64,000 bases of DNA from a virus (IMGVR_UViG_3300042351_000809); one strand, 5' to 3'. Shown: positions 5,174-56,779, numbered from the stretch's first letter. Translations and numbers: made by a program. Notes: generated by a model from the letters alone, not told the origin.

Positions 5174-5668
5174 TTAGATTCTATTAAATGGTCTGATTGA
5201 ATAATACTTATCGGTAATATAAGATCCAGCCACAGTATCGTCGCCAGCAACTTGCAAAGGACCAACGTCGTTGATATTATAATCATTAATCATCATAGTT
5301 AATTCATTAAGCATATTTTTCTTAGCTTCTAAGTATATTTTGCTGGTTTCATTTTTATTAATCCTACGGACAGTTCCACCGCCGTCTGTAACTTCCAACA
5401 AACTATCTCCATTTATTGCATTTAAAGTTTGCTTGACTTTTAAGTCATAGAAATAACATTCGTAGATTTTTTTATAAATAGACTTCTCTGTTTCGCCCAA
5501 ATTAGGCACAAGCTCCAAAGTATTGTCATCAATAACAATATCTTTGTTCAGCTTATTATTAAGAATACCTATATTGCTCCTAAGCCAATAACTAATAGCT
5601 GGTACTGATAGATCACTTGGTTGACCTAATTCGAAATATATTTCTTGAGCCATGTCTACAATTTTCAT
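5174..5668 (-). CDS. Putative head-tail adaptor
   Basis: 164 aa, helical; synteny. Confidence 0.45.
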   Translation of the reverse strand: MKIVDMAQEIYFELGQPSDLSVPAISYWLRSNIGILNNKLNKDIVIDDNTLELVPNLGETEKSIYKKIYECYFYDLKVKQTLNAINGDSLLEVTDGGGTVRRINKNETSKIYLEAKKNMLNELTMMINDYNINDVGPLQVAGDDTVAGSYITDKYYSIRPFNRI

Positions 5669-43498: not shown

Positions 43499-43840
43499 AT
43501 GAAGAATAAATTAAATGTTACAGTTGTAAACCCTAAGACTTGCAGAAAGAAGATTTGCTGTGAGGGTTGCGAACTGTCATATAGTAAACAAGATTATTTA
43601 TTATTCTTCACTGTGCGTAAACTTGTTTATTTTAATATGCTTGCAGAAGACGGTAAACAAATAAAGATTTGCGATTCGTGTTTAGTATCTCTCGCGTCCA
43701 TGACTTGTGCGAAATATGATTTACCATATATTAGTATTATAATTAAAGGAGAGGAAAATACAAAACAAATAAATATAGAATATAGTAAAGACCCCGAATT
43801 TGAGCAAGAATTAATTAAAATTTTTAAGAAGATTAAGTAA
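43499..43840 (+). CDS. Cys-rich hypothetical protein
   Basis: 113 aa with CxxC motifs. Confidence 0.55.
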   Translation: MKNKLNVTVVNPKTCRKKICCEGCELSYSKQDYLLFFTVRKLVYFNMLAEDGKQIKICDSCLVSLASMTCAKYDLPYISIIIKGEENTKQINIEYSKDPEFEQELIKIFKKIK

Positions 43841-44326
43841 TTTATCTTGTTTTTCGGGGGTCATATCTTCTGGCGGCGAATTTTGTATTATATATTCCAG
43901 CATCTTAACGGCGGAATGGTAATTATTTCTATTCTTTAGGGAGTTGCCCTCATAGGATACTATTTTAACGTTACCTTTTATGTATCCTTTATTTGGATCT
44001 ACTCTATCCAATGATGCTGATCTCCTGTGGTCGATGCCTGATTTGTATAGGATTTCGTGGCCTAAAATGGGGCAGGTATTATTTTTAATGTTTATTAAAT
44101 CCCCCAGCGTAAGGTTGAATTCCAGATTTTTCTTTTTTGAACGCTTTTTTGCTTTACTTAAGATGACTTTTTTGAGATAAACTATCTCGCCTCCATCAAC
44201 GTTTCCCATCTTTTCTTTAATTTTATTGTATTCTTGGGAGTAGCAACAAGTATTGCACTTGCCTTTTATTCTATTGAACTCTGTATCTTCTTTGTCAACC
44301 CCACAGACAGAACATTTGATTAACAT
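43811..44326 (-). CDS. HNH-type endonuclease
   Basis: CPILG...SLDRVDPNKGYIKGNV...N..K motif; N-terminal zinc finger. Confidence 0.75.
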   Translation of the reverse strand: MLIKCSVCGVDKEDTEFNRIKGKCNTCCYSQEYNKIKEKMGNVDGGEIVYLKKVILSKAKKRSKKKNLEFNLTLGDLINIKNNTCPILGHEILYKSGIDHRRSASLDRVDPNKGYIKGNVKIVSYEGNSLKNRNNYHSAVKMLEYIIQNSPPEDMTPEKQDKLLNLLKNFN

Positions 44327-44673
44327 TAGATATATCTACACAAGCTATATCTAAAAAAGGTATTTTTCAGGGGAGGCTCCGGGGATTTTTTGACCTTGCA
44401 AAGTTTTTGGGTCTGGCTTTTGGTCTTATTTTTTGAGAAATAGGGGGGTCTTATATGGAGATATATATATTATTACATAGAGATAGTAAGTATTTATTAA
44501 ATTAAGGGCAGAATAGATAGACTTCTTTAATTGGTATATTAATAAAAGAAGGTTTTATAGATTAAGGGCAGAATGATTTTCATCCCCCCTCCCCCCACTT
44601 TCAGAAAAGAGGTCGAGGATCTTTTCAAAATTAGGGGGGTCTGTCAAGGGCAATCTTTGGCAATCTTGACAAG

Positions 44674-44699
44674 AAAAAGCCCCCTCTTTCGAGGGGGTT
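44674..44699 (-). terminator. Terminator closing the leftmost early unit
   Basis: CCCCCTC-GAAA-GAGGGGG plus U-tract. Confidence 0.8.
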
Positions 44700-44719
44700 G
44701 TGCTTGACTTTCGTTTGAA

Positions 44720-45160
44720 TCAGTCGGCCAGATTGGCGACGTTTTCCAACGCGAAGCAAAGGAACTGCGGTTCCCCCTTGTCGGGGCTATAGTCGCGAAT
44801 GGTGGCGAGTTCCTCGGGGGTCGCTTCGCGGCCATCCACAAGGTAACGGGTGACCCGCTTGGCGGACGTAGGAACGGCGGCCAGATACAAGGCCCCGCTT
44901 TCCTTGTGCATGACCAACCCATCCTTGACCCAAGTGAACCACGGGGCCTTGCCAGCGGGGGCCTCGCCTGTGCGGGCCTCTAAAACGTTGGAGTATGTCT
45001 CAGGCCCCGCCACGGTGACCGTGATGCGGTGGTCGCGGGTCACGCGACCCAAGAGCGGGTTCAGGGGAACGCCAGCGCGGCCCCCCTTGTTCATTTTGTG
45101 TTCGCCAGTCAAGAGGATGGTGGCGAGGCGACCGGCGCGGATGGTGGTGGTGTCAATCAT
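44720..45160 (-). CDS. Hypothetical early protein; high-GC paralogue of 46426-46863
   Basis: 146-aa ORF, colinear with the 145-aa ORF. Confidence 0.8.
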   Translation of the reverse strand: MIDTTTIRAGRLATILLTGEHKMNKGGRAGVPLNPLLGRVTRDHRITVTVAGPETYSNVLEARTGEAPAGKAPWFTWVKDGLVMHKESGALYLAAVPTSAKRVTRYLVDGREATPEELATIRDYSPDKGEPQFLCFALENVANLAD

Positions 45161-45384
45161 GATGCGTTGCTTTCTTAAAACGTCGCCGTGATTGGCGACA
45201 AGGAAAGACTCTCACGGGTCGCTTCCGTTGTCACCTAGAAAGTGAAAGAAAAGTGAAAAACCTTTCAGGGTCATGCATAGGGTCCGAAGCGCGTCAAGCC
45301 AAAAAGTGGAAAAAGATTGTCAAGGAAAAAGAGTTGCAAGAATCGGGGACTCCGTTTTCTGCAACTCTCCTTTGGAAAGAGACT

Positions 45385-45421
45385 TGGCACGGTCCCTGCT
45401 GTCCTAGCAAGAGCCGTGCCA
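45385..45421. promoter_or_regulatory. Convergent pair of sigma54 (-24/-12) motifs
   Basis: TGGCACGGTCCCTGCT (+, 45385-45400) and TGGCACGGCTCTTGCT (-, 45406-45421); both GG-N10-GC. Confidence 0.75.
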
Positions 45422-45434
45422 GTCTAGCCTTGGG

Positions 45435-45692
45435 TCACTCTGCGAAAAGATCGGCCTTGGCGCGAGAGTGAGCCATGATGGCATGAGTCTTGCTCACATC
45501 CGTGGGGATGAAGGAAAGGCGGTAGGTCATGAGGTTCAGAGCGTCCTTGATTTCCTGCAACTGCCGCTTTCGACTAGCGACCAAGGAAGTCCTGTCTTCA
45601 AGGAACACGATGTCGGTTTCCAAGGCGACCATTCCGCCAATCAAGGCGGCGCGGACTTTGGTGGCTTGCTCTGCGGTGATGATGTTTTCCAT
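45435..45692 (-). CDS. Hypothetical early protein
   Basis: ORF track 45435-45773; start moved to MENIIT, downstream of the promoter. Confidence 0.7.
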   Translation of the reverse strand: MENIITAEQATKVRAALIGGMVALETDIVFLEDRTSLVASRKRQLQEIKDALNLMTYRLSFIPTDVSKTHAIMAHSRAKADLFAE

Positions 45693-45802
45693 GTTGTGTT
45701 TTATAGTGTCGCCGTCATTGACGACGGGAAGACTTTCGCACGGATGCATTTTGATTGTCACCAACTTTCTCAAAGAATCTTTGAGTACCCAATCGAAAGC
45801 CC

Positions 45803-45987
45803 AGCACGTTTCATGCCAAGTCTAGGTTGGCATGCTCTTTGCTCCCCAGCATAGACTATGCCAAGTCCGCACTCCAGAGAGTTGCGAGAGTTGGGGTCTC
45901 CTTTTCTTGCAACTCTCGGTTTTCCGGTTGGCATGGCACTTGCTCCCCAGCACGAATCGTGCCAAGTCGGTTGGCATGGAACTTGCT
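45803..45987. promoter_or_regulatory. Six sigma54 (-24/-12) motifs flanking repeat copy 2
   Basis: TGGCAY-N6-TGCT at 45803(-), 45828(+), 45848(-), 45929(+), 45949(-) and 45972(+). Confidence 0.75.
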
Positions 45988-46159
45988 TCCCCTTATACTA
46001 CTATAAGCCATTTCTCACTAATGTTAGTGATAAATCCTTATATATATACAAAAAATCCCCTGTACTAGTACAGAGGATCTGAGGGTATTTGATATTTATC
46101 TATTTAATGTTTAATGTTAGAGAAACAACCAAATAGGAATATCGCAATCAATAGTATAA

Positions 46160-46357
46160 TCATAGCTCGTCCCTATTGTATTTGTATTGCAATTTGGATA
46201 GGGCTTCTGTTATGTGTTGCTTCTTTTCGCTCCAAATAGAATGATCTGTTTTAATACTCTGACATGATTGTATTAGTTTATCGCATTCTTGTATAGCTTG
46301 CTCTAGTGCTATCTGCAAATGAACCATTTCAATATGAGTAAGAGAAGTGTCAGACAT
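46160..46357 (-). CDS. Hypothetical protein
   Basis: 65-aa ORF. Confidence 0.6.
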   Translation of the reverse strand: MSDTSLTHIEMVHLQIALEQAIQECDKLIQSCQSIKTDHSIWSEKKQHITEALSKLQYKYNRDEL

Positions 46358-46425
46358 AGTGTTTATATATAAGGGTTTTAGTATTAAATGCGCGTTTATA
46401 GTATTCGCGCCCCACTGTTTATCAA

Positions 46426-46863
46426 TTAGCCTTCTACGTTTACGACATTTTCAATTGCAATAGTGAGAAACTCGGCTGGCTCACTAGCTGGCTTGTACTT
46501 ATACAAGGTTTCTAGTTCTTCTTCTGTCATAGGGCGACCGTCTAATAAATATTCAATCTTACCAACATTGCTAGTAGGAATACCAGCGATATACAATTGG
46601 TTGGTCTGTTTATGAACAACCAGACCGTCTTTAATAAAACGAAACCAAGGCTCTTTACCAGCTATCTCATTACCCTTACGAGTTTGGATATTAGTATAAG
46701 TTTCCTCACCGGCAATTGTAATAGTAAAACGGTGATTCCTAGTAACACGCCCAAGGAAGGGATTAATAGCAATACCCTTGCGCCCACCTTTATTCATAGA
46801 CAGCTCGCCCTGTAGTAGTATAGTGGCGATCTGACCGGCTTTGATAGTAGCAGTGTTAATCAT
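46426..46863 (-). CDS. Hypothetical early protein; low-GC paralogue of 44720-45160
   Basis: Shared ATILL.GE..MNKGGR, LGRVTR.HR, PWF...KDGLV.HK and Y..DGR..T.EEL motifs. Confidence 0.8.
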   Translation of the reverse strand: MINTATIKAGQIATILLQGELSMNKGGRKGIAINPFLGRVTRNHRFTITIAGEETYTNIQTRKGNEIAGKEPWFRFIKDGLVVHKQTNQLYIAGIPTSNVGKIEYLLDGRPMTEEELETLYKYKPASEPAEFLTIAIENVVNVEG

Positions 46864-47165
46864 GTTGTTTATAAATAAGTGTTGCTGTTTATATAATTAC
46901 CGAACCGACGTTGATACCTTAGCACAGCCACGAATCCAGTAAACACTTTTCTTTAAGTATTTTTCATACCTAAACCGAGAGTTGCACGTTTTGGGGTCTC
47001 CGAAATCCGCAACTCTTTTTTGTTGACAACTTGTACATATATAAGAGAAGTCACTATTTGTTATTTGATCATTTATTATTTAATATTTGCTGATTTAATA
47101 TTTAATGTTTGGATAAAAAAATCCCCGCTGTATTGCTACAACGGGGTTTTGTATTTATTACTATT

Positions 47166-47369
47166 TCACCAATCCGAATCTTGTCCAGTGGGGTCTTCGT
47201 CCCACTCGCGTTGCCACTCAGAATGACAGGGCTGGCAAACCGCGCTCCGTGCCTTCGGGGGCATCAGAACGCTGCAACGGGCGCAATGGAAGCGCTCTGC
47301 GCCGTTTTCATCGATGACAGGGCAACCGCCAGCTTCGTGCCCACAACAAGGGAAGTCTTCGCAAGCCAT
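47166..47369 (-). CDS. Small Cys-rich zinc-binding protein
   Basis: CEDFPCCGH, CARC and CQPC motifs. Confidence 0.7.
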   Translation of the reverse strand: MACEDFPCCGHEAGGCPVIDENGAERFHCARCSVLMPPKARSAVCQPCHSEWQREWDEDPTGQDSDW

Positions 47370-47385
47370 AGTGTGATATAGTGAT

Positions 47386-47589
47386 TTAGTTTTTTAGTCC
47401 GAGAGAGTGACAAACAGAAGCTAGTCTGCAATTGATTCTATCAAGCTCCAAAGCAATATCACTAGCAGAATGATAATTAGCATTTGTGATGTTATTGGCG
47501 CAATTGTTAATTTGTTCAATGAGAGACTGCACCTCATGCGCGAGCGCGAGGGTGGCGGTGGCAGGGGCGGGGCAGGAAGAGGAACTCAT
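47386..47589 (-). CDS. Hypothetical early protein (near-leaderless)
   Basis: ATG 9 nt after TTGTAT-16-TACCCT. Confidence 0.6.
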   Translation of the reverse strand: MSSSSCPAPATATLALAHEVQSLIEQINNCANNITNANYHSASDIALELDRINCRLASVCHSLGLKN

Positions 47590-47760
47590 GGTGCCCAAAG
47601 GGTAGCACGGACTCATTATGATACAATTTTTTTGTGAGATTTTTTTAGGTAATCATTTCCGAGAGTTGCAAGAGTCGGGCACCCCGAAACCCGCAACTCT
47701 TTTTGTATATAAAAAAACCCCACTGTTTATCACAGCGGGGCTATTGTATTTGTTTAGCGT

Positions 47761-48177
47761 TTATTCATAATGTGGGCGAGGCTCCGCGCTATTGTCACAC
47801 TCGCCCCGCACCTGCTCAATCGTGACCCATAGCTCGCCCCCGTCGCTCCACCCCGTGGGGATGTACCCCTCATCGTGGTACGCCGTGTCGCATTCCTCGC
47901 CCGGAAGCGCGGCCATCGCACGATACCGCGCAGGGGCTTCCTCGCGGTTTTCACGCTCTACCTCCACCTTGGCGTTTTCAAGCCAAGCCTCGGCGGCTTC
48001 CATCGCGGGAAAGTAGATGGACCCTTCCAAGGTGTTGCGGGTGTACCACCAGCCACCCTCCTCCGGTCCACCGTAGTTCTGGCTGCGGCGGTACACGCTG
48101 ACCCACGCGCCTTGCGGCACGTTGAATTCGGCGTGGGCTTCGATTTTTTCGATCAGGGACTGCATTGTTGATTTCAT
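47761..48177 (-). CDS. Hypothetical early protein (leaderless)
   Basis: YGGPEEGGWWY motif; ATG 7 nt after TTGATT-16-TATGGT. Confidence 0.75.
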   Translation of the reverse strand: MKSTMQSLIEKIEAHAEFNVPQGAWVSVYRRSQNYGGPEEGGWWYTRNTLEGSIYFPAMEAAEAWLENAKVEVERENREEAPARYRAMAALPGEECDTAYHDEGYIPTGWSDGGELWVTIEQVRGECDNSAEPRPHYE

Positions 48178-48336
48178 CGTCCCTACCATAACAGGCGCAC
48201 AAGTGAAATCAAGAGAAAATCGCACAAAGAGAGTTGCGAGATTTAGGCTCCCCGAATTCTGCAACTGTTTTTGTATAAAAAAACCCCCGCTATAGTAGTA
48301 TAACGGGGGCTTATCTGTTATTTATTTAAATAGTAT

Positions 48337-48555
48337 TTAAAAGATTTCGTTGCAAACTGAATTGTTTTGTTCTGTTCTAATATTAGCAATAGTGTGAAAG
48401 ATATCCAAAGCTTCTTCCCAAGTATTTAAATCAGAAACAAAATGAATCCAATCTTCTTTACTATAACATTCAACATAGACTTGATAACCATATCCTTTAT
48501 TATAATTATCTTCCGCCAGTTGCTTCAGTTGCTCAATCCATTTTGATTTATCCAT
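48337..48555 (-). CDS. Hypothetical early protein (leaderless)
   Basis: ATG 8 nt after TTGACT-16-TATCTT. Confidence 0.7.
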   Translation of the reverse strand: MDKSKWIEQLKQLAEDNYNKGYGYQVYVECYSKEDWIHFVSDLNTWEEALDIFHTIANIRTEQNNSVCNEIF

Positions 48556-48794
48556 AGGGCACCAAGATAGCAAAAAGAATGAAAAAGTCAATAGATTTGA
48601 GAGTTGCAAGAGTTAGGCTCCCCGAATTCTGCAACTCTTTTGGGCTTGACTTTTTTTTCTTCATTTGGTGAGCGATTTGTGTTGACTCTGAGGGCGAAGC
48701 CGCCCTTTGGTCTATTTGGGGGAGGTCTGGCAATATTTGCGATTATTTGAAATAATTTTTTGACAACCTCGACCAATCTGATACCGTAGGCACG

Positions 48795-49091
48795 ATGAAA
48801 CCAGAAATTAGCGCAAGCATCCAACGCAAGTTCACCTTTGAGATCCAACTTGAAGATCGGTACGACGTTTCCGAGATCGAAGTCCTTGTGGGCTTTGAGT
48901 GGGATTACGAGTGCAACCCTGACGAGATCCGAGGCACAGACTTCCTCGTCATCTCCGAAGTCATTTGGGATTGCGAAGGCTTCACTTGGGCAGAGGAGAA
49001 GGAGATCCAAGCCGCGATCTTCTCCCGCTACGAAGAGTGGACCCGTGAGACCGAAGAAGCCGAAAGAGAGGGTCGCTTGAACGTGGATTGA
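48795..49091 (+). CDS. Acidic hypothetical early protein (leaderless)
   Basis: ATG 7 nt after TTGACA-16-TACCGT; very D/E-rich. Confidence 0.75.
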   Translation: MKPEISASIQRKFTFEIQLEDRYDVSEIEVLVGFEWDYECNPDEIRGTDFLVISEVIWDCEGFTWAEEKEIQAAIFSRYEEWTRETEEAEREGRLNVD

Positions 49092-49107
49092 AAAGTCAAG
49101 AAGAAAA

Positions 49108-49135
49108 TCACCCCGCTACGGCGGGGCTTTTTTTT
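49108..49135 (+). terminator. Terminator; identical 23-bp copy at 49512-49534
   Basis: TCACCCCGCTACGGCGGGGCTTT precedes both repeat 7 and repeat 8. Confidence 0.8.
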
Positions 49136-49230
49136 GAGAGTTGCAACTTTTGGGCACCCCGAATCCAGCAACTCTTTTTTGAGAAAAATTGTTTACAAGA
49201 GTCACGGCCCGTGCGAGACTCTTCTCCGTA

Positions 49231-49506
49231 ATGAAAACACAACACGACAGCATCGATACCGCCAGCGACCTCCGCGACCTCATCGCGCAGACCCCCGAAG
49301 AGTTTGAGCCTTCTCGTCAAGACTCTGAGCCTTTGGTTGTGGTTGACGCGAAATCCTTCCGCGAAATGCGCGTGGCTCTGAAAATGTACTTGTTCGAAAT
49401 AAAGTACTTGACACACTACCGCCCAGAGTACCGGGAGCAAGTCGCCAAAGAGGCTCAAGACCTCTTGGACAGAACGGAATACGATAAAGTCAAGAGAATT
49501 TACTGA
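49231..49506 (+). CDS. Hypothetical early protein
   Basis: Start moved to MKTQHD, downstream of the promoter. Confidence 0.7.
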   Translation: MKTQHDSIDTASDLRDLIAQTPEEFEPSRQDSEPLVVVDAKSFREMRVALKMYLFEIKYLTHYRPEYREQVAKEAQDLLDRTEYDKVKRIY

Positions 49507-49590
49507 AAAATTCACCCCGCTACGGCGGGGCTTTACAGTTGCGCGTTTCGGGCACCCCGAAGCTCGCAACTCTTTTTTTTCTTTTTTCTT

Positions 49591-49619
49591 TTGACGAGTG
49601 GGCTGGTCTGGGCTAAGGT
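49591..49619 (+). promoter_or_regulatory. Sigma70-type early promoter (representative of the cassette promoters)
   Basis: T-tract, TTGACG-17-TAAGGT, ATG 6 nt later at 49626. Confidence 0.75.
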
Positions 49620-49625
49620 TTGGGC

Positions 49626-49826
49626 ATGCAAAAAACGATTGAGTTTTACAACCGCGAAGTCTACGGCAATGTGCGCGAGTACATCGCAAATGAAAATGAC
49701 GCAAACATTGTTTACCGCTTGACGGGAAAGAAAACGATCACTAGTGTGGAGCGCGAGTTGATTCGTGACCTCTCCGGTGGTCTGATTCACTTCAAACAAA
49801 TTTTGCCCCCTTCGAAGTCGAAGTGA
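49626..49826 (+). CDS. Hypothetical early protein (leaderless)
   Basis: MQKTIEFY; REVYGN...Y and LTGKKT motifs. Confidence 0.7.
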   Translation: MQKTIEFYNREVYGNVREYIANENDANIVYRLTGKKTITSVERELIRDLSGGLIHFKQILPPSKSK

Positions 49827-49847
49827 GGGCGGGTTAAGGCAAGCGGC

Positions 49848-49951
49848 ATGGTACGCAGGGAGATCCTGCGGCGGGTTAGTTGAACCTTTAGAAACACTGC
49901 TTTTTCGGTTAGATTCGTGTCAAATGGTACGCAGGGAGATCCTGCGGCGGG
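49848..49951 (+). repeat. Two 28-bp direct repeats with an internal dyad
   Basis: ATGGTACGCAGGGAGATCCTGCGGCGGG at 49848 and 49924. Confidence 0.9.
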
Positions 49952-50105
49952 GTTTTTTGCAAAGAGTTTGTTGTGATTCTCTTTGAAGGTTTTAGCCCCC
50001 ATGAAACAGACACGAATCTTTCCGAGACTTGCAGCAATCCGCCACCCCAAATCCTGCAACTCTTTTCCTTTGACGGTTTTCCTAAATCTGATAATGTTTC
50101 CCCGT

Positions 50106-50498
50106 ATGAAAAACAAATCACTTGTGTTTGCCCTTATTTGCTCATTCTCTTTGACAACCTACGGGAAAGTCACTGAAGAACTATTTTTCAAAGCCCTTGG
50201 CAAAGTCGAGGCTTCTGGTAATCCAAACGCCGTCAACAAAAGAGAACAAGCTTTGGGTATTTATCAAATTCGATTTGCTTATTTCAAAGATTCTGGCGTA
50301 AAAGCCAACCATAAAGACGTATTTGACCCCAACGTGGCAAAAATGGTTTGCAAGGCTTATTTCGCCCGATACGAGAAAAAGGCTCTTGACAATGGAGACT
50401 GGGAAGTGTTAGCTAGATTGCACAACGCCGGTCCCAACTGGCGCAAGAATAAATCATCTACTGATAAATACTGGAATAACATTAAAAAGAACCTGTAA
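50106..50498 (+). CDS. Lysozyme-like / lytic transglycosylase with N-terminal signal
   Basis: VEASG (catalytic Glu), GIYQI and ARLHNAGP motifs; hydrophobic N-terminus. Confidence 0.75.
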   Translation: MKNKSLVFALICSFSLTTYGKVTEELFFKALGKVEASGNPNAVNKREQALGIYQIRFAYFKDSGVKANHKDVFDPNVAKMVCKAYFARYEKKALDNGDWEVLARLHNAGPNWRKNKSSTDKYWNNIKKNL

Positions 50499-50502
50499 TA
50501 AT

Positions 50503-50604
50503 ATGAGCAACAAGACTTTTGATAGAATTATAAATGCTGTAATTGTATCACTCACTATTGCTACTGTTGTTAGTGTTACTGTGGTTTACAACATCATCTT
50601 TTAA
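50503..50604 (+). CDS. 33-aa single-TM peptide
   Basis: MSNKTFDRIINAVIVSLTIATVVSVTVVYNIIF, read by eye; fills the operon gap. Confidence 0.5.
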   Translation: MSNKTFDRIINAVIVSLTIATVVSVTVVYNIIF

Positions 50605-50608
50605 TAAA

Positions 50609-50890
50609 ATGGAACTCACTTTTCTTTCTGACCCCGGCCACGGTTGGCTTCGTGTTCCTCATAAATTACTTGAAGACTGGAATATTGATATCTTAATATC
50701 AGAGTATAGTTATAGAACAAGAGACTTTGCTTACTTAGAGGAAGACTGTGATGCTTCTATCTTCATTGACGAAGCCAAGAAAAGGAATTACAAATACTCT
50801 GTTCATTACAAATTGATTAAAGACTTCGATTACTATCTCAAAAACGTTGGTAATTACTATAGATTTAACAATAACCTAAGAACAGCATGA
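50609..50890 (+). CDS. Conserved hypothetical phage protein
   Basis: DPGHGWL...YLEEDCDA motif. Confidence 0.7.
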   Translation: MELTFLSDPGHGWLRVPHKLLEDWNIDILISEYSYRTRDFAYLEEDCDASIFIDEAKKRNYKYSVHYKLIKDFDYYLKNVGNYYRFNNNLRTA

Positions 50891-51075
50891 GTGGCGAACT
50901 AAAGATAACAATACAAGAAGTTGTAGACCTTCGTGTGGCATTAAATAATGCAGAACGCCGTATCAAAGAGTTAATGGCATTAAAGCATGAAGACTGGCAT
51001 AAATTGTATCATTTAGATATTGATTCAATAGAAAAAGGAAAAGACGCTCTTAAATCTATTATACAAAGAGATTAA
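50887..51075 (+). CDS. Hypothetical protein
   Basis: 62 aa; ATGA overlap with the previous gene. Confidence 0.6.
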   Translation: MSGELKITIQEVVDLRVALNNAERRIKELMALKHEDWHKLYHLDIDSIEKGKDALKSIIQRD

Positions 51076-51186
51076 ATCACACCCGCTTCGGCGGGTTTTT
51101 CTTTGAGACTTGCAGACTCTGGGCACCCCGAATGCTGCAACTCTTTTTGTTTGAAACTCGCGCCGCTTGTGATTACCTTGTCCCCG

Positions 51187-51492
51187 ATGAAACTGCTGAC
51201 GAAACAACTCGCCGAAAAACTCAACAAGGCCGGTTCTGACGGCATGGTCCCTATTTGCAAGCTTTTCACTCCGTGGAGTGACGCTACTTGGTTGATCACT
51301 GGGATCGAAGGTGGCATCCTTTACGGGTTCGCTGACTTGGGCATGGGTTGCGTTGAATGGGGCAGTATCGCTTCCGTGGAAGAATTGGAAGCAATCAAGG
51401 GACCGCTTGGAATGACCATTGAGCGCGATTTGTACTGGCAACCCAAGGAAGGCGTGAACTACTTTGAGCTTGAAACCCTCGCGGCTATTTAA
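51187..51492 (+). CDS. DUF2958-like protein (leaderless)
   Basis: KLFTPWSDATWL...GFADLG...EWG...EL...IERDLYW; ATG 7 nt after TTGAAA-17-TACCTT. Confidence 0.75.
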   Translation: MKLLTKQLAEKLNKAGSDGMVPICKLFTPWSDATWLITGIEGGILYGFADLGMGCVEWGSIASVEELEAIKGPLGMTIERDLYWQPKEGVNYFELETLAAI

Positions 51493-51494
51493 TT

Positions 51495-51677
51495 ATGAGA
51501 GAATCTGTTTATGCTGCCGAATGTTGGGCTACTGATAAATCAAAAGAAGAAATCCAATCAGAAATCAATTACTTACAAAACCTTTGGAAGATTAAACACC
51601 CAAACCCTTTTCCTAAAAACGCACACTATAGTTATATCAGGATTGTAACGCTAAAAGAAATCCTTAAGAATAAATAA
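51495..51677 (+). CDS. Hypothetical protein
   Basis: 60-aa ORF in operon. Confidence 0.55.
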   Translation: MRESVYAAECWATDKSKEEIQSEINYLQNLWKIKHPNPFPKNAHYSYIRIVTLKEILKNK

Positions 51678-51678
51678 T

Positions 51679-51948
51679 ATGACTCTCAAAAACTTAATTG
51701 ATCATGGTTTGTTAAATAATACAAGCATGATTTGTATTGCTGATTGTGAAATAGTTCCGAGTTTTCAAATTGAAGATGATTTTCTAAAATTGCACAGAAA
51801 GAATGAGCGAGTTTTGCTTTTTCCATTAAATAATGAAGTAATCTTTGATGGACTGTTTCTCACTGTGGAAGATGAATTGGAAACAGAATACGATTTGTCT
51901 TTCCTCACTTGTACTACTATAGATCCTGAATCGTTTAAGAATAAATAA
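51679..51948 (+). CDS. Hypothetical protein
   Basis: 89-aa ORF in operon. Confidence 0.6.
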   Translation: MTLKNLIDHGLLNNTSMICIADCEIVPSFQIEDDFLKLHRKNERVLLFPLNNEVIFDGLFLTVEDELETEYDLSFLTCTTIDPESFKNK

Positions 51949-51950
51949 AT

Positions 51951-52124
51951 ATGAAATACAAAGTCGCGCTATACCAAGAGATTTATACTTATTTAGAAAT
52001 TGAAGCTAAATCAGAAGATGAAGCAAGAGATTTAGTCTTAAGCGGAGAATTTGATGATGCTAACACTATTGATAACGAAGTAAAAGAGTCTGAAATCATT
52101 GGTTGTGAAGAAATTAAAGAATAA
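51951..52124 (+). CDS. Small acidic protein (DpnD/PcfM-like motif)
   Basis: 57 aa read by eye: MKYKV...LEIEAKSEDEA. Confidence 0.55.
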   Translation: MKYKVALYQEIYTYLEIEAKSEDEARDLVLSGEFDDANTIDNEVKESEIIGCEEIKE

Positions 52125-52125
52125 T

Positions 52126-52320
52126 ATGAAATCCCTCACACTTCAACAGATACAAGCTAACTTAAAAGAATGGATGGGTGATAGTATAAAGCCCGATACC
52201 AGAAGCGGAAAACTTGCAGAGCGTACTTACATAAAGGCTCTTTTAGATACAGGCGCAAAAGTTCCACCGATTTGCATTATACTACTACAGAGTGGGCGTA
52301 GTATTGTAAACTTTAAATAA
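52126..52320 (+). CDS. Hypothetical protein
   Basis: Start moved to MKSLTL. Confidence 0.55.
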   Translation: MKSLTLQQIQANLKEWMGDSIKPDTRSGKLAERTYIKALLDTGAKVPPICIILLQSGRSIVNFK

Positions 52321-52431
52321 ATAACACGCCCCACTTCGGTGGGGTCTTAGAGTTGCAGACTTTGGGCACCCCGAATGACGCAACTCTTTTTTTTTGACTC
52401 TTTTTCCCACTCAGTGCTACTGTGTCCGCGT

Positions 52432-53304
52432 ATGAATAACACAGTTAAAAACGCTATCCGCCACCTCGTTTGCAAAGCCTACGACGCTTTTGCACAAAAC
52501 AAAACAGACATTGCCGTCACTTCTCTCCCCGGCTCTTCGTGGGAGTTTGAGAAATATGTGATAAATCACAAAGCTTATGGTGATACATTCGGGAATGTAT
52601 ATTCTCTTCAAATGTCACTCTTTGAATGTAACTCACAAGAATATCAAAGCAATCTTCGCCCCATTGCTACTATCTTTCCCCATAATAAGACAAGTGCCTA
52701 CATACTTAACCACTCTGGCGTTACATACAAAAACGAATACATAAACGCCAATAGCGTTAAATCTCTCAAATCAAAGAACATTTTCGCATGGTTTGACTTC
52801 TGTGGTAACCCTACAGAACATAACCTTGATTTGATTAAAACAGCCAAAGACAAAACTGTTACTTTCATTTTTACTTTCAATACTCACTGGCGGTGTGATA
52901 GTAACATTAGCCCGATTGTTATCAATACGGCTAACGAATATAACAAAGGATACGCTATTCAATGTTATCTGTTGACTCTGGCAATAGAGCTTGGTTTGTC
53001 ACTAGTCTGGTCGTTTGAATATGTGTCAAATCAAAATCCCATGATGACTATCTGTGTCAGTAATGACATGAATGTTATCACAAATCGCTCTTTGCAGGTT
53101 AAAGACTTCATCACTCACGAAAAGAAAGACAATAAGGCTGGTGTTAATAAGACTAAATTGGTTCTCAATAAACGCGAATTGAGCGCCGTCTATGCGGATT
53201 TGAAAGAGCGCGTTAGTGATAAAGAGATCTGTGAGAAGCATAGTATTAGTACAGGCACACTTGCCGCTTGTAAAGCTTGGATGACTATGTGGAAAGCTTG
53301 GTAA
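52432..53304 (+). CDS. Hypothetical protein with possible methyltransferase-like fold and C-terminal HTH (leaderless)
   Basis: SLPG, FE, AWFDFCG motifs; ATG 8 nt after TTGACT-18-TACTGT. Confidence 0.5.
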   Translation: MNNTVKNAIRHLVCKAYDAFAQNKTDIAVTSLPGSSWEFEKYVINHKAYGDTFGNVYSLQMSLFECNSQEYQSNLRPIATIFPHNKTSAYILNHSGVTYKNEYINANSVKSLKSKNIFAWFDFCGNPTEHNLDLIKTAKDKTVTFIFTFNTHWRCDSNISPIVINTANEYNKGYAIQCYLLTLAIELGLSLVWSFEYVSNQNPMMTICVSNDMNVITNRSLQVKDFITHEKKDNKAGVNKTKLVLNKRELSAVYADLKERVSDKEICEKHSISTGTLAACKAWMTMWKAW

Positions 53305-53449
53305 TACAATAACGACTGGGGGGCTTCGGCCCCCCTTTAGAGTTGCGAGAGTTGGGCACCCGGAATCCTGCAACTCTCTGGTTGTTTATAAACAAAAACC
53401 CCCTAGTGTTAAACACTAGAGGGTGCTTTATTTGATATTTGATCTGTTA

Positions 53450-53644
53450 TTATTTAATGTTTTCGGTTTTATTATTAGTAAACCTATAGACTTTAAAACG
53501 AATATTATTAAGGTCTTTTCTAATCTTCGTCAATTCAGCACGAATCTTTTCGCGTCTGTTTAGCAATAACCTTACAGACTTTTTCATCTCCTTTAGGTTA
53601 TTGAGTTTAGTTTGCAACTTAGCTATTTGCTTATCTTGTGTCAT
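53450..53644 (-). CDS. Basic coiled-coil hypothetical protein
   Basis: 64-aa ORF. Confidence 0.55.
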   Translation of the reverse strand: MTQDKQIAKLQTKLNNLKEMKKSVRLLLNRREKIRAELTKIRKDLNNIRFKVYRFTNNKTENIK

Positions 53645-53703
53645 TTTTGTTTCCTTCTATTATTATTGTTAATAGCAATACTACCAATAGTAGTATAAGC
53701 ATT

Positions 53704-54336
53704 TTAATGTAATTTATAACTAACGTTTGTCACTGATTTATCCCAACAGGCGCGGCAATTGAGACATTTATTATCTTGATTGGAGGCAGGACAATTGAAT
53801 GTTTTATCTTTTGACACACCAGAAGTCGTTAATCCTAATATCTTAGCAATGCCACTAGGCGCATTGCCATTTATCATTAGGGAAGAAAGACGAATAGTGA
53901 GATTGGAAGGAATATCACCAAATTGTTTCTTGTATTGAGTAACAAATGAATATTCCCTAGTCGGCAACCAGAATTTAATATGGGGAAGATTGATAGCGAT
54001 CTGACAAATCTTTGTCAAATGTTCTACAGATTGAATATCACCACTATCATGCCAACGAAAGAATCCACTCTTTTCTTTTGTAGCAATAGCAATAGTCATT
54101 GCTTCAACCCATTCGGGTTTATTAATAGAGTCAAATCGCTTTTGTAAAGCGTTTCTGACATTGGGCATATTATAGAAACCCTTTAATGCATAACACTTAG
54201 AGCAAACGCTATTCTTAATAGACACTAGCTTTCCGCCCGTTTTGCAGTACTTTGCCGGGATCGAATAGGAAAGACACGGCATTTTTGAGGGCGCAGAGAG
54301 TCCACCAACGAGGTCAAGGGCAAGGTCAAGATTCAT
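53704..54336 (-). CDS. GP88-family (radical-SAM-like) phage protein (leaderless)
   Basis: C..G......C..CYA, FRWHDSGD, FWLPTRE and C..CRACW motifs; ATG 7 nt after TTGACA-17-TAACCT. Confidence 0.75.
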   Translation of the reverse strand: MNLDLALDLVGGLSAPSKMPCLSYSIPAKYCKTGGKLVSIKNSVCSKCYALKGFYNMPNVRNALQKRFDSINKPEWVEAMTIAIATKEKSGFFRWHDSGDIQSVEHLTKICQIAINLPHIKFWLPTREYSFVTQYKKQFGDIPSNLTIRLSSLMINGNAPSGIAKILGLTTSGVSKDKTFNCPASNQDNKCLNCRACWDKSVTNVSYKLH

Positions 54337-54534
54337 CGTGGAAAGGTTAGCGCAAAGGGCAAACGGTGTCAACAGATTCGGTGCGATTTTCTTTGAGAGT
54401 TGCGCGATTCGGGGTCTCCATTTTCTGCAACTCTCTATGAGTATGTAGTTATATAACAATAAACCCCGATCTATCAAATCGGGGCTTATTTCGCTTATTT
54501 GTCTTTAATCTTGTTATTATTTAGAAACAAGCAC

Positions 54535-54732
54535 TTAAAGTATTTTATAATTAAAACTATTAACACACCAACCAGTTCTATCACTAATCATGTCAGCTAA
54601 TTCATCATCCAAAGCCCCTTCCATTATTATTAAAGAATTATCAATTTCAAACTCAAAAGAAGTTGGCAAGTTCTCTACCTTACCATCTTCTTCATCAATG
54701 TCATAAGATATATCAAATACAGAGACTATCAT
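54535..54732 (-). CDS. Small acidic hypothetical protein
   Basis: ISD.TGWCV.SF.Y motif. Confidence 0.65.
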   Translation of the reverse strand: MIVSVFDISYDIDEEDGKVENLPTSFEFEIDNSLIIMEGALDDELADMISDRTGWCVNSFNYKIL

Positions 54733-54841
54733 ATTAATATATTCTTATTTACTTAATTCTGATAAATAGATAGCCAAAGTAATTAAAACAACAGCAGGAA
54801 TCAGATAAGTCAAAAACCTTTTGTACATATTTAATTGCATA

Positions 54842-55105
54842 TTAGTGAAAGAAGATTCGTGATTCGTCTTTGAAAGTTTTCTCTTTGCCAGCTTCGTCCC
54901 ATTCGATACCGTATGTCAAACCTTCTTCGACATGATGTTTATGTAAATAATTGAAACCTTTGTATTGCTTTGCTTCCATCAGCAGGTCCGTCACGAAGAA
55001 CTGGAGAGTTCTGCGCTGGATGATCGCTTCGTTTTTGCTGGTGCAAAAGAAGTGATTGGCTTTCAGTTTGACTGATTCAAGGCTAACCGTTTTACGTTTT
55101 GTCAT
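54842..55105 (-). CDS. Hypothetical early protein (leaderless)
   Basis: ATG 7 nt after TTGATT-16-TACTAT; YKGFNYL motif. Confidence 0.7.
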   Translation of the reverse strand: MTKRKTVSLESVKLKANHFFCTSKNEAIIQRRTLQFFVTDLLMEAKQYKGFNYLHKHHVEEGLTYGIEWDEAGKEKTFKDESRIFFH

Positions 55106-55250
55106 CGGGGAAATAGTAATTCATGCCCAGAGGAAATCAAAGGAAAAAGAGTTGCGAGAAGTGGGCACCCCGGATGGCGCAAGTCTTTGGAGACGCAAAA
55201 AGGGGCACCCCGTAGGATGCCCCGCGCTGGCCGTATTTGGCGATCTGGCG

Positions 55251-56111
55251 TTAGTTGCTGGCGAGCTTCTTGAACTCAGCCTCAATCAGGCTGGCCTTGT
55301 TCAGGGTGACCAAGGTGCCCCGGTTGATGCGTTGCGCCAGTTCGTAGGAGGTAGGCTCGACCTGATGGGAGGTGAACTGCGTCACGGCGTTGTACAGGCT
55401 CCAGAGGCTGCGGTTCTTGTCCTCGCGGTGCGTCGGATCATTCCAGATGATCTTGATTTTATCCACGTTGCGGTCAGCGATCACCTTGGCCTTGGTGAGC
55501 TTGTCGAGGATAATGTGGCCCTGCTCCTGCTTTATAGAGCGTTCAGCCAAGCGGCTGAAAACGGTGGTGCTTTCCTTGAAGCCCTCGACCGCGCCAGCCA
55601 CAACGTCCACAAGGCGGGAAACGTCGAGCTTGTCGGAGTGCTTCTGGGTGAGGCTGAACTCATCCTGAAGCGTCTTCAGGCCGTTGGTGCAAACGAGGCG
55701 AAGGATGCCCATCTCGAAAGAGACGCGACAGGTGCGGTCGAAGGAGTTGTTCAGGATCAGGCGCAAACCAAGGTCATCCCCAACCTTGGGGAGCTTCACC
55801 AGTTGGTTCTTGAAGTCATACTGGACGTACACCCGCGCACCGTCGCGCATGGAGTACTCCTTGCGGGTGAACTCGCCCAACTTGTTGTCCGCGAAAGCGG
55901 TTTCGACAGTATCCATCAGGGAGCGGTTCTGAACGAGAGTGTAGCGTTCAGTGCAAACCCCAAGCACCTGCTTGCTGTCGGTGCGGCGATTGGCGAGCCA
56001 ACCAGAGGCTTCGCCATCAGGGGTGAGGAGCGGGACAGTCTCGACCGTGTAGTCGAGCAAGCTATCGGCGCGAGTGGTGGCAGTGGCGGGGGTGACGTTG
56101 ATTTCGGTCAT
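55251..56111 (-). CDS. DUF932/DUF945-family protein
   Basis: LG....Y..VQN, NSFD, RLVCTNG, H and W.LYNAVT motifs; high GC. Confidence 0.8.
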   Translation of the reverse strand: MTEINVTPATATTRADSLLDYTVETVPLLTPDGEASGWLANRRTDSKQVLGVCTERYTLVQNRSLMDTVETAFADNKLGEFTRKEYSMRDGARVYVQYDFKNQLVKLPKVGDDLGLRLILNNSFDRTCRVSFEMGILRLVCTNGLKTLQDEFSLTQKHSDKLDVSRLVDVVAGAVEGFKESTTVFSRLAERSIKQEQGHIILDKLTKAKVIADRNVDKIKIIWNDPTHREDKNRSLWSLYNAVTQFTSHQVEPTSYELAQRINRGTLVTLNKASLIEAEFKKLASN

Positions 56112-56433
56112 AAGTGCAGTGTTGATGTTAAGTGTTAACTGACGGACCAGAGGTTAGACGGCAATCAAATCAGGCGCAACTCCTTTTTCGCTTTTTCTTC
56201 AGATTTTTTTCGACTGAGAGTTGCTGGCGGCGGGGTGCCCTTTTTCTGCAACTCTTAATAATAAATAATTCTTGACAAATCTATTCTCTTTCTATCTATC
56301 TCTCCCCCTATTAAAACACACCAATCTCTTATTTCGCTTATTTGCTGGTATTATTTCTAATATTTAAGAATAAAATTAACAATATTAGGTAATAAAAAAG
56401 CCCCCTTTATTTAGGAGGCTGGTGTTTATTATT

Positions 56434-56507
56434 TGGTTGGGGATGATGGAATCGAACCACCACAAAGAGCTTCAAAGACTCCTGCACTACCATTATGCAA
56501 ATCCCCA
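56434..56507 (-). tRNA. tRNA-Gln(UUG)
   Basis: Cloverleaf, anticodon loop CTTTGAA, encoded CCA. Confidence 0.92.
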
Positions 56508-56563
56508 GTAAAAGAAAAACCCACTAGTTATATTTAACTAATGGGCTGTTATTATTTGGCTTA

Positions 56564-56779
56564 TTACGCCTTAACGTACTTAATCTTGCCAGACTTAACA
56601 GATAGGATCTTACTGACAGGTACACGACGATCAGCATCAGCATTCACATCATAAAAAGAAACAGTCTTATTAGATGCAGATAGGATCTGAGCGCAGAACG
56701 TGGTGTTCTCCTTCTTAGAACCAACAACTAGGGTAGTGAAACGACCGGCAGTATTATTTAGTGTATCAGTTAATGACAT
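56564..56779 (-). CDS. Hypothetical protein (leaderless)
   Basis: 71 aa; ATG 7 nt after TAGTAT. Confidence 0.65.
   Translation of the reverse strand: MSLTDTLNNTAGRFTTLVVGSKKENTTFCAQILSASNKTVSFYDVNADADRRVPVSKILSVKSGKIKYVKA

Follow-up and report, generated by a model that had tools for sequence, protein, structure and literature searches.

What is the repeated dyad that stands between the small gene units of this phage, and what reads it? In the window (the whole 64,000-nucleotide stretch of IMGVR_UViG_3300042351_000809 that was analysed), a motif search allowing at most one mismatch per copy finds 15 copies of AGAGTTGC-N23-GCAACTCT between 45330 and 56255, where shuffled sequences would give 0.04. 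The coordinates of the 15 dyads, the invariant 23-bp spacer between the 8-mer arms (15 of 15 copies) and the copy-to-copy spacing of 370-1243 bp, all given in a preliminary description of this DNA, were reproduced by this search. The scan of the whole record that it had proposed finds no further copies elsewhere in the 79,412 bp, and the dyads are thus confined to the array. Their total length is strictly 39 bp and never varies, and the 23-bp spacer recurs in 222 of 222 exact-arm dyads when relatives are included. Each dyad consists of two invariant 8-bp half-sites, 31 bp centre to centre, around a G3-N3-C3 core that is flanked by T- and A-rich steps; because 31 bp is about three helical turns, the half-sites would lie on the same face of the helix.

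The array recurs at an equivalent genome position in about 20 contigs of related phages; each has 13-20 dyads, with none elsewhere in those records. The arms come in two versions: type 1, AGAGTTGC/GCAACTCT, and type 2, ATAGTTTy/rAAACTAT, the latter carried by most relatives with the length and the GGGCACCCC core unchanged. Arm positions 2/38 and 7/33 switch together between lineages, each being G-C or T-A, and none of 500 shuffles reaches the observed pairing. Arms are invariant within a genome, one arm type being held by 66 of 67 loci (151 distinct dyads), and no hybrid-armed (type 1/type 2) dyad occurs among the 151. The one mixed array, L098, has a single type-1 dyad among type-2 dyads, showing that a foreign-type dyad can persist. 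The types are kept apart despite 95% identity between the backbone gene of the window and that of type-2 phages, and despite 97% identity of some window cassettes to type-2 cassettes. When the same junction is compared between types, replacement takes in the whole dyad and, on the promoter side, the flank with its -35 box, while on the terminator side the flanking sequence stays conserved as far as the edge of the dyad; identity of the dyad interior between arm types is at background (0.33-0.41). The existence of two lineage-specific arm versions suggests that some protein reads the dyad ends. The motif does not occur in 185,579 prokaryote genomes and is therefore unlikely to be a common host site.

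One dyad lies at each boundary between self-contained promoter-gene-terminator units. The 14 units of the preliminary description are indeed delimited by dyads and their orientation (5 minus, 6 plus, 3 minus) is borne out by the gene calls, but a fifteenth unit lies just left of copy 1. This unit 0 (44660-45329, minus strand; gene 44720-45160, 146 aa, GC3 0.78; terminator 44680-44697) takes copy 1 (45330-45368, core GGGGACTCC) as its upstream element, with a TTGACA box 6 nt leftward of the dyad on the minus strand, before the gene. Unit 1 (45369-45877, minus) holds an 85-aa gene (45435-45692) found in type-1 arrays only. Beyond copy 2 (45878-45916, core GGGGTCTCC), in which the arm motif AGAGTTG recurs in the left N7, 9 nt further inward, unit 2 (45917-46977, minus) contains genes 46426-46863 (145 aa) and 46160-46357 (65 aa), and this entire cassette is inverted in many type-2 arrays. 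The 146- and 145-aa products of units 0 and 2 are paralogues without a recognisable fold, and theirs are the only array genes present in every array that split deeply by arm type. Copy 3 (46978-47016) is followed by a T-run and then by an orphan TTGACA box at 6 nt. The two genes of unit 3 (47017-47661, minus; 47386-47616 and 47166-47369) form separate, differently ordered cassettes in L023, L025 and L029. Copy 4 (47662-47700), a motif match, precedes unit 4 (47701-48229, minus; gene 47761-48177, 138 aa), and copy 5 (48230-48268), with the right arm GCAACTGT, is the right breakpoint of a replacement in L007, L017 and L059. Unit 5 (48269-48599, minus; gene 48337-48555, 72 aa) is missing in L017, where one hybrid dyad is left. 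At the divergent boundary, copy 6 (48600-48638) has TTGACT boxes on both sides at 7-8 nt.

The plus-strand block opens with unit 6 (48639-49136; gene 48795-49091, 98 aa), unit 7 (49176-49534; gene 49231-49506, 91 aa) and unit 8 (49574-50024; gene 49626-49826, 66 aa, with two 28-nt hairpin repeats), separated by the motif matches copy 7 (49137-49175) and copy 8 (49535-49573). Copy 9 (50025-50063) has the unusual core CGCCACCCC and stands before unit 9 (50064-51105), which holds an SLT-domain gene (50106-50498) and three small genes. Between copies 10 (51106-51144) and 11 (52349-52387), both motif matches, unit 10 (51145-52348) holds a DUF2958 gene (51187-51492) and four small genes, and unit 11 (52388-53338) a 290-aa gene (52432-53304). 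Copy 12 (53339-53377) marks a convergent terminator-terminator boundary that is promoterless on both sides, and type-2 arrays keep a dyad at the same junction; promoter control alone therefore cannot account for every dyad. The last three units are on the minus strand: unit 12 (53378-54395; GP88-family gene 53704-54336 and gene 53450-53644), unit 13 (54435-55147; genes 54842-55105, 54745-54840 and 54535-54732) and unit 14 (55187-56216; DUF932 gene 55251-56111). They are separated by copy 13 (54396-54434, core GGGGTCTCC), a member of whose family is the lone type-1 dyad in L098, and by the motif match copy 14 (55148-55186); copy 15 (56217-56255) forms the right end of the array.

The cores of copies 1-3, 13 and 15 had been described as reversed. 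This holds for copy 15, whose core GGGGTGCCC is a true reversal and whose counterpart at this position in type-2 arrays is reversed too, but copies 1-3 and 13 carry a nearly symmetric variant (GGGGWCTCC), and copy 3 is forward when judged by its flanks. Polarity is uniform along the array regardless of gene direction; it tracks array position, not the direction of cassette or gene. A T-run follows the forward dyads of type-1 arrays. The N7 segments do not pair above the expectation from column composition, which confirms the earlier view that they lack compensatory pairing; together with the fixed 23-bp spacer, this favours a double-stranded protein site over an RNA hairpin, as had been proposed.

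Terminator-like hairpins (32, against 12.1 expected) adjoin the dyads; a dyad is placed with the terminator U-tract of one unit directly on one side and the upstream promoter edge of the next on the other. By reading of the sequence, a TTGAC-type -35 box stands 6-8 nt from many dyads, and the predicted promoters have a T- or A-run before this box and a TAnnGT-like -10 box after it. The same reading places the -35 box 6-8 nt from the dyad in type 1 and 7-27 nt in type 2, with distances clustering at 6-8, 16-18 and 27 nt and orthologous promoters moving by about 10-12 or 21-24 nt between arm types. Some promoters are out of phase, at 23 and 33-34 nt from the dyad, and two orthologous promoters shift by merely +2 or -3 nt between types.

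Between relatives, dyad-bounded cassettes are relocated, inverted, inserted or deleted. This agrees with the claim that the repeats delimit cassettes. Related phages differ in cassette order, content and orientation, with dyads at the boundaries; identical order without breakpoints at the repeat, which would have argued against recombination, is not found, as the arrays differ. The DUF2958 cassette (unit 10) occupies three places in two orientations, or is absent, and is always bounded by dyads, while L059 has an extra cassette at the copy 9 site with the CGCCACCCC core in both flanking dyads. Where cassettes are inverted, the flanking dyads retain their polarity. Of the rearrangement breakpoints, about one third are not at dyads but at intra-operonic gene junctions. 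No fixed crossover point is seen within the dyad: when only one flank is shared, the two halves are equally similar (0.71 vs 0.76).

We propose, with a probability of roughly 45%, that a lineage-specific protein recognises the dyad as double-stranded DNA, and that the dyad works both as a transcription boundary beside early promoters and as a joint for cassette shuffling of the PeSL kind. A sequence-specific, probably dimeric protein would read the arms, with a specificity that differs by phage lineage, and once bound it would insulate and/or tune (activate or later shut off) the early host-type promoters, a role that we propose because the dyad lies between a terminator U-tract and the edge of the next promoter. 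The dyads are the only sequence common to all cassettes and their ends are palindromic, so that the two arms facing one cassette form an inverted repeat and corresponding arms of adjacent dyads are repeated in direct orientation. Shared dyads with such repeats could therefore serve as joints for cassette exchange, insertion either way and loss, which would happen when related phages recombine. We infer binding, transcriptional role and mode of exchange from the conserved and nearly pure arrays, the rigid spacing, the unpaired interior and the dyad-bounded rearrangements. The uniform polarity of the dyads is unexplained by this protein-boundary model. No dyad-binding protein was identified among the array genes, and no cognate repressor was recognised in the window, most of whose proteins lack a known family. 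A phage DNA-binding protein site, which the preliminary description had listed as an alternative, is now better supported than the integron- or shufflon-like system that it had favoured.

The nearest precedent, as had been suggested and as the literature comparison upholds, is the PeSL (promoter-early stem-loop) cassettes of T4-type phages (Arbiol et al. 2010, PMC2839356; Comeau et al. 2014, PMC4122927). Both systems repeat a composite module of terminator and promoter within a hyperplastic region rich in small orphan genes (PMC2839356; PMC4122927); in each, a sigma70-type -35 box and AT-rich sequence adjoin a G-run/C-run stem-loop, and relatives differ by gene insertion, deletion or replacement at the modules. 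Accordingly, the array has sigma70-like promoters with an AT-rich upstream stretch in the module (by reading) and insertions, deletions and replacements with breakpoints at modules. As for the stem-loop, there are canonical terminators immediately upstream of the dyads; folding of the dyad itself is conceivable, but its interior is without covariation and it comes after the U-tract. In contrast to PeSL, the present element is a separate 39-bp unit, placed between a canonical terminator and a promoter and built of invariant 8-bp arms around a 23-bp spacer, it exists in two lineage-specific arm versions with arrays nearly pure for one, its cassettes also invert and relocate, and the phage is not T4-like and has giant fibre genes.

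Two further systems offer partial parallels. The stoperators of Cluster A mycobacteriophages (Mavrich & Hatfull 2019, PMC6550527; PMC9283540) are likewise many short protein-binding sites in short intergenic gaps (binding being predicted here), and in both cases the motif varies between related phages, for stoperators in step with the specificity of the reading protein. Stoperators act on transcription beyond classical operators, and a transcriptional role is what we propose for the dyads. However, stoperators are 13-bp, asymmetric sites for a monomeric immunity repressor, oriented with transcription and spread genome-wide in temperate phages, whereas the 39-bp dyad is confined to one array with a polarity independent of transcription. 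The intergenic repeats of halovirus HF2 (PMC8707807) resemble the dyads in fixed length, in conservation of sequence and position among related viruses and in promoter association. Unlike the dyads, they are themselves promoters (archaeal, AT-rich), lack dyad symmetry and are not reported as cassette joints.

An enzyme dedicated to cassette mobilisation, encoded in the rest of the genome or belonging to a new family, would instead cut and rejoin at the lineage-specific arms to excise, integrate and invert cassettes, resembling integrons and shufflons but a member of neither. Such an enzyme would account for the single dyad at boundaries of any kind, the promoterless convergent one included, for the extra dyad that comes with a new cassette (the L059 pair with its rare core), for the mobile, always dyad-bounded DUF2958 cassette and for lineage-specific arms. 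Inverted cassettes between dyads of unchanged polarity are as expected for exchange in palindromic arms, and inter-dyad homology amounts to just the 8-bp arms, a poor substrate for ordinary homologous recombination. Against this, no tyrosine or serine recombinase or Y1 transposase was found in 79 kb (about 45% of the genome) and fragments of four relatives, the crossover point is not consistent, about a third of the breakpoints are intra-operonic and hybrid-armed dyads are missing despite exchange between types 1 and 2. We consider such an enzyme unlikely. A specific form, slightly less probable again, is an undescribed exchange system in which DNA is broken and rejoined at the palindromic arms by a lineage-specific protein outside the known recombinase families. 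If it existed, a phage could take up early cassettes (anti-defence or host-takeover genes), either way round, from other phages that infect the same cell; it would be the functional equivalent, in a lytic phage, of an integron, with arm type as a compatibility barrier between lineages.

Integrons have the IntI tyrosine recombinase, an attI site and mostly promoterless, one-way cassettes read from Pc, and shufflons use Rci and 19-bp sfx inverted repeats to invert segments inside one coding gene. The array resembles an integron in its short gene cassettes bounded by imperfect palindromes whose outer arms are conserved and whose interior varies, as in attC, and in the variation of cassette content and order between relatives. 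The dyad is, however, fixed at 39 bp, compared with 57-141 bp for attC, and no IntI, attI or Pc was found in the 79 kb. A tyrosine recombinase profile (PF00589) matches nothing in this record, about 45% of the genome, and nothing in the G006 and G007 fragments; RYYYAAC...GTTRRRY is unmatched, the dyad placing GTT in its 5' arm and AAC in its 3' arm; and promoters and terminators belong to the units themselves, which lie in both orientations. A shufflon was rejected as well, there being no tyrosine recombinase in that sequence and the units being whole transcription units, not gene segments. Of the originally proposed integron- or shufflon-like capture, excision and inversion, the rearrangement of cassettes at dyads stands, but a recombinase, a consistent crossover point and restriction of breakpoints to dyads are not supported; that no recombinase is visible in the window agrees with the profile search, which extends this to 79 kb.

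The dyad could also be a pure cis element without a dedicated protein (a PeSL-like stem-loop, a back-up bidirectional terminator or a DNA structure), with exchange by ordinary short homology. The order terminator-dyad-promoter is the PeSL layout, including the G-run/C-run stem-loop that precedes AT-rich sequence and a -35 box, and the T-run after forward type-1 dyads and a predicted folding energy of -6 to -24 kcal/mol point the same way. But independent compensatory drift of each copy would then be expected, and instead the arms are the same genome-wide, the length is fixed and the interior does not covary. Moreover, the dyad lies downstream of the canonical terminator's U-tract and is therefore mostly not transcribed, and it has no match in Rfam. 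We regard this explanation as distinctly improbable.

Enzymes that read folded strands include HUH/Y1 transposases, integron-integrase-like recombinases and the RNA polymerases of phage N4 type, which use hairpin promoters. A single-strand hairpin of DNA or RNA, with an arm stem, an unpaired bubble, a G-C stem and a 3-nt loop, could be the target of such an enzyme. Folded as a single strand, the element is predicted to form a two-tier hairpin whose stability slightly exceeds that of interior-shuffled versions (mean z -1.16), with an apical G3/C3 stem and a CAC/GTG triloop in most copies. The arms co-vary, L062 carries a 45-bp, fully palindromic variant, and positions 8-11/29-32 pair below chance in type 1 and type 2 alike (position 10/30 also pairs less often than by chance), although this depletion next to the arms would equally be expected if long perfect palindromes were selected against. 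Hairpin sites, however, do not usually have a strictly fixed length, and no Y1 transposase (PF01797) was matched in the DNA examined. N4-type hairpin promoters were rejected, as dyad polarity is independent of gene direction and the two giant proteins (2,600 aa) match fibre domains of the Bdellovibrio Bd2133 type, not polymerases. A folded-strand site is accordingly very improbable.

A selfish miniature palindromic element that colonised intergenic gaps is scarcely credible: REP/REPIN elements and MITEs depend on a cognate RAYT/Y1 or DDE transposase and are dispersed in the genome, and the dyads, short and intergenic with terminal inverted repeats as they are, occur in one 10-12 kb array only, absent from the rest of the records and from prokaryote genomes, exactly one per boundary, at the same boundaries in type-1 and type-2 arrays, with no visible target-site duplications and no PF01797 match.

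Most proteins of the window are without a known family, and no deposited phage is similar to this one. There are no T4-type matches among the tested window proteins, whose known-family matches comprise the terminase large subunit and a few others.

A pattern search for AGAGTTGC-N23-GCAACTCT, allowing up to two mismatches, found 15 sites in the window, each with at most one mismatch and all within 45330-56255, against a chance expectation of 0.04 from shuffled sequences. The repeat array proposed in the preliminary description is thus real and highly non-random. A scan of the whole 79,412-bp record containing the window returned no further copies, so that the dyad (39 bp, two 8-bp arms around a spacer made of N7, a 9-bp core and N7) is confined to the array. 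From sequence reading and checked ORFs we delineated 14 units between the dyads, and one more to the left of copy 1; along the array they are oriented 5 minus, 6 plus, 3 minus. The array is rich in terminator-like hairpins (32 versus 12.1 expected), and the terminator U-tracts pass straight into a dyad arm. To the right of the last dyad, the interval 56256-56420 holds an orphan TTGACA box 16 nt from the dyad and no ORF before the tRNA cluster; the box is kept in the related contigs L007 and L056.

An exact-pattern scan of IMG/VR revealed two more arrays with the window's motif, in L007 and in a further related contig, L017, and 19 close relatives were found with the conserved neighbouring gene at 43811-44326 as query. 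In most relatives the motif is missing and an equivalent array stands at the same position; its dyads keep the 39-bp length and the GGGCACCCC-like core, and their arms are ATAGTTTy/rAAACTAT. We call dyads with these arms type 2 and those with AGAGTTGC/GCAACTCT type 1. The arms pair at 94-100% across 83 distinct dyads; between types, positions 2/38 and 7/33 change in concert from G-C to T-A, and the observed pairing was reached in 0 of 500 shuffles. The spacer is invariant in 222 of 222 copies with exact arms. A tally over all loci gave 151 distinct dyads, with 66 loci of a single type and one mixed (L098), and no dyad with one arm of each type occurred among the compared arrays. In the records of four relatives, type-2 dyads are limited to arrays of 13-20 copies. 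Every viral and metagenome match belongs to this phage group; these scans contained no third arm type, and none of 185,579 prokaryote genomes has several copies of either type.

Two loci depart from this pattern. In L098, seven type-2 dyads are accompanied by just one of type 1, at 5401-5439, which belongs to the copy-13 family; this mixed array is either a recent recombinant between the types or an assembly chimera. At L062:723-767, the only copy on a 7.8-kb contig of a more distant relative is 45 bp long: its arms are type-1-like (AGACTTGC/GCAACTCT), its spacer measures 29 bp and its interior is a nearly perfect palindrome.

Sequence comparison indicates that the arm type is not simply inherited along with the adjoining DNA. 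Identity of the window's backbone gene is 95% with type-2 phages and only 81-88% with other type-1 phages. In its left half the window's array matches type-1 L007, and several cassettes of the right half are nearer to type-2 arrays (for gene 54842-55105, for example, identity to its counterpart in the related locus L025 is 100% at the protein and 97% at the DNA level); all dyads in the window are type 1 despite these type-2-like cassettes. At junctions common to both types, the terminator-side flank is conserved right up to the dyad edge, the whole dyad interior is unrelated (N7 identity of 0.33-0.41, equal to background), and the promoter-side flank, including the -35 box, has also been replaced. 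From this pattern we infer a trans-acting reader of lineage-specific specificity and selection for a matched set of sites, and this forms the core of the best explanation. One gene was rejected as the determinant of arm type. The minus-strand gene at 41316-42008 encodes a 230-aa protein with a borderline match to Sigma70 region 2 (23.5 bits, cut-off 24) and is probably a phage sigma factor; its stretch is about 90% identical to type-2 relatives and only 85% to type-1 L017, and therefore it does not track the dyad type.

We then considered the form in which the dyad might be recognized. Folded as single strands, the dyad copies have predicted energies of -6 to -24 kcal/mol; shuffling the interior makes the fold only slightly less stable (mean z -1.16), and the difference comes mainly from a central G3/C3 mini-stem. 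The N7 segments show no pairing above column composition, positions 8-11/29-32 pair less often than by chance in both types, and Rfam holds no known RNA family that matches the dyad. Moreover, the dyad would mostly not be transcribed because it is located past the terminator U-tract and ahead of the promoter. Judged on sequence features, a rigid protein-DNA complex would fit better than a folded strand, given the constant length, the identical arms within a genome and half-sites that lie three helical turns apart; a hairpin-recognizing enzyme acting on the dyad is a less likely alternative. In several type-1 dyads (45886-45893, 53347-53354 and others) the arm motif AGAGTTG recurs in the left N7, 9 nt in from the outer arm, so the left half of these dyads may hold two tandem half-sites.

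We mapped genes and dyads in more than 30 arrays and compared nucleotide sequences, which revealed relocation, inversion, gain and loss at dyads, and these support the earlier proposal of a cassette array. The cassette encoding a DUF2958 protein follows the SLT cassette in type-1 arrays and precedes it in one type-2 group; in another type-2 group it is inverted and lies between a 290-aa gene and the next unit. It is missing from a few arrays, and is bounded by dyads wherever present. The 145-aa/65-aa cassette is likewise inverted between arrays. In L017 unit 5 has been lost and one hybrid dyad is left, and the related locus L059 has gained an extra cassette of ~400 bp at copy 9, with both flanking dyads carrying the rare CGCCACCCC core of that copy. 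Genes that form one operon in the window occur elsewhere as separate dyad-bounded cassettes in another order, and unit 1 is found in type-1 arrays only. Many contigs break within the array, which fits population heterogeneity at the locus.

A dedicated recombination system acting on the dyads would account for such movements, but we regard it as unlikely. Cassettes invert while the neighbouring dyads retain their polarity; exchange within the palindromic arms, or at them, would have this outcome, since each cassette is faced by a pair of mutually inverted arms. Other breakpoints lie at gene junctions inside operons (loss of 51667-52126 or of 54524-54742, and the left end of a replacement at 47392). 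When we asked whether each half-dyad travels with its adjacent cassette, there was no left/right asymmetry (0.71 versus 0.76), and a crossover through the dyad's midpoint was thus not confirmed. Searches for tyrosine, serine and Y1-type recombinases (PF00589, PF00239 and PF01797) gave no match in the window's record or in the fragments of relatives, all of them partial genomes. The intra-operon breakpoints, the symmetric half-dyad test and the lack of a recombinase in the DNA examined argue against a precise enzyme, and the integron- or shufflon-like mechanism of the preliminary description was not borne out.

Among the cassette products are an SLT-type lysozyme domain, DUF2958, DUF932 and a GP88-family protein, and many small acidic proteins with a pI of 4-5; we interpret this repertoire as similar to those of early, host-takeover or anti-defence genes in other mobile elements. 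GC3 varies from 0.21 to 0.80 among the genes, with sharp contrasts between neighbours that point to exchange with phages of very different base composition. Within 44300-56700 the mosaic is block-wise, whole genes of 55-70% GC standing beside genes of 25-35% GC, and three genes (53704-54336, 54842-55105 and 47386-47616) have a GC-richer 5' end next to a dyad and promoter. After the gene at 49626-49826, a 28-nt GC-rich hairpin sequence occurs twice, at 49848-49875 and 49924-49951, 76 nt apart, and is conserved in L007, L021, L025 and L029.

In type-1 arrays the TTGAC box lies 6-8 nt from the dyad edge in 22 of 34 flanks and 16-17 nt in 5. The distances in type-2 arrays are 7-8 nt (5 flanks), 16-18 nt (9), 27 nt (4), 33-34 nt (8) and 39-43 nt (10), some boxes at 33-43 nt sitting past a neighbouring terminator, where they may be chance matches. 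By reading, orthologous promoters shift between the types by +10 to +12, +21 or +22 to +24 nt, and two shift by merely +2 or -3 nt. These distances may reflect helical phasing. In most units the -10 box (TAnnGT-like) of the first gene ends 6-8 nt ahead of the ATG (for example at 50078-50108, 52413-52434 and 49611-49628), and translation of these first genes hence probably starts on leaderless mRNAs; downstream operon genes have no obvious Shine-Dalgarno sequences. Copy 12 has a terminator on each side and a promoter on neither, and the dyad is nonetheless kept in both types. Promoter control alone therefore cannot be the whole function, and an insulating or roadblock role would cover this copy. 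The most likely reading, to which we assign a probability of roughly 0.45, is that the dyad is a putative boundary element that a lineage-specific protein would bind and that would double as a recombination joint.

Two further motifs occur near the dyads. At 45385-45987 there are nine matches to the sigma54-type -24/-12 pattern TGGCAY-N6-TGCW (0.59 expected), all flanking dyad copies 1-2 and mostly in face-to-face palindromic pairs of ~38 bp. Among relatives, the pattern occurs singly right beside dyads, directed into them (for example at L007 copies 3-4 and many type-2 dyads), and in L062 it forms 45-bp tandem repeats; the matches could be a second dyad family, decoys or promoters. In L034, L021, L025 and L007, the left flanks of dyads that precede AT-rich minus-strand cassettes have a TTGACA box at 33 nt, with a conserved stretch of ~27 nt (reverse complement CGATTAGGTATGTAAATTGGTCAAAAATA) separating it from the dyad. 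Each array has this stretch at several cassettes, and it may be a second shared promoter-upstream module.

Candidates for the reader are the paralogues encoded at 44720-45160 and 46426-46863 (146 and 145 aa, 54% identical, GC3 of 0.78 and 0.35). They are present in every array and show a deep split by arm type, with 48-61% identity between types. Neither Pfam, PHROG nor the PDB gave a sequence match. A single-sequence structural model was poor; an alignment-based model reached a pLDDT of 77.7, for which Foldseek returned nothing at E <= 0.001 and VIA-align scored Z 2.9 at best. We also considered an HU/IHF/TF1-like reader because the 9-bp core lies between flexible steps, and found no PF00216 match in the records examined, which cover part of the genome. 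A host transcription-factor site is unlikely, the motif being absent from the 185,579 genomes. An N4-like hairpin promoter read by a virion RNA polymerase was dismissed, as the two giant ORFs match Bd2133-type fibre domains and not polymerases.

Hyperplastic regions are where phages keep and trade host-takeover and anti-defence genes, and to our knowledge the movement of such genes is known in outline only for T4-type phages, in their PeSLs. These are the closest system in layout and evolutionary behaviour; however, PeSLs lack a fixed-length dyad and lineage-specific arms, and the present phage is not T4-like. Many intergenic sites whose sequence tracks the specificity of a phage protein have their best precedent in the stoperators of Cluster A mycobacteriophages, which differ from the dyads in size, symmetry and distribution. 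For integrons, shufflons, REP/MITE elements and N4 promoters, the array fails a defining feature of each. New here are the two arm types, the co-variation of the arms, their near-purity within arrays, the rigid spacing and the link to promoters. The array is an unusually clean study system, with a rigid, recognizable joint, two mutually exclusive specificities and dozens of natural variants in which single cassettes have been relocated, inverted, gained or lost. A protein that reads the arms, if there is one, would offer a handle on the insulation and regulation of early-gene islands, might reveal how cassettes are exchanged, and would provide a portable, orthogonal site-reader pair for phage engineering. 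Searching metagenomes for the dyad is also a way to find early and anti-defence cassettes.

The window has no nucleotide match to any deposited phage. Its phage genes include a terminase large subunit, an ERCC4-type nuclease and two adjacent minus-strand genes (12313-20133 and 20138-27937) for proteins of ~2,600 aa, with domains resembling Bdellovibrio Bd2133 and a cell-wall surface-anchor protein; these are probably giant fibre or adhesin proteins. L018 and L008, considered as sources of the remaining genome sequence, are both unrelated. The phage genome is ~165 kb (records of ~163-171 kb exist), and long assemblies of the same phage stop 0-5 kb past the window's right end, which places the array ~7-20 kb from one end of the assembled genome. 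Seven tRNA genes lie directly to the right of the array.
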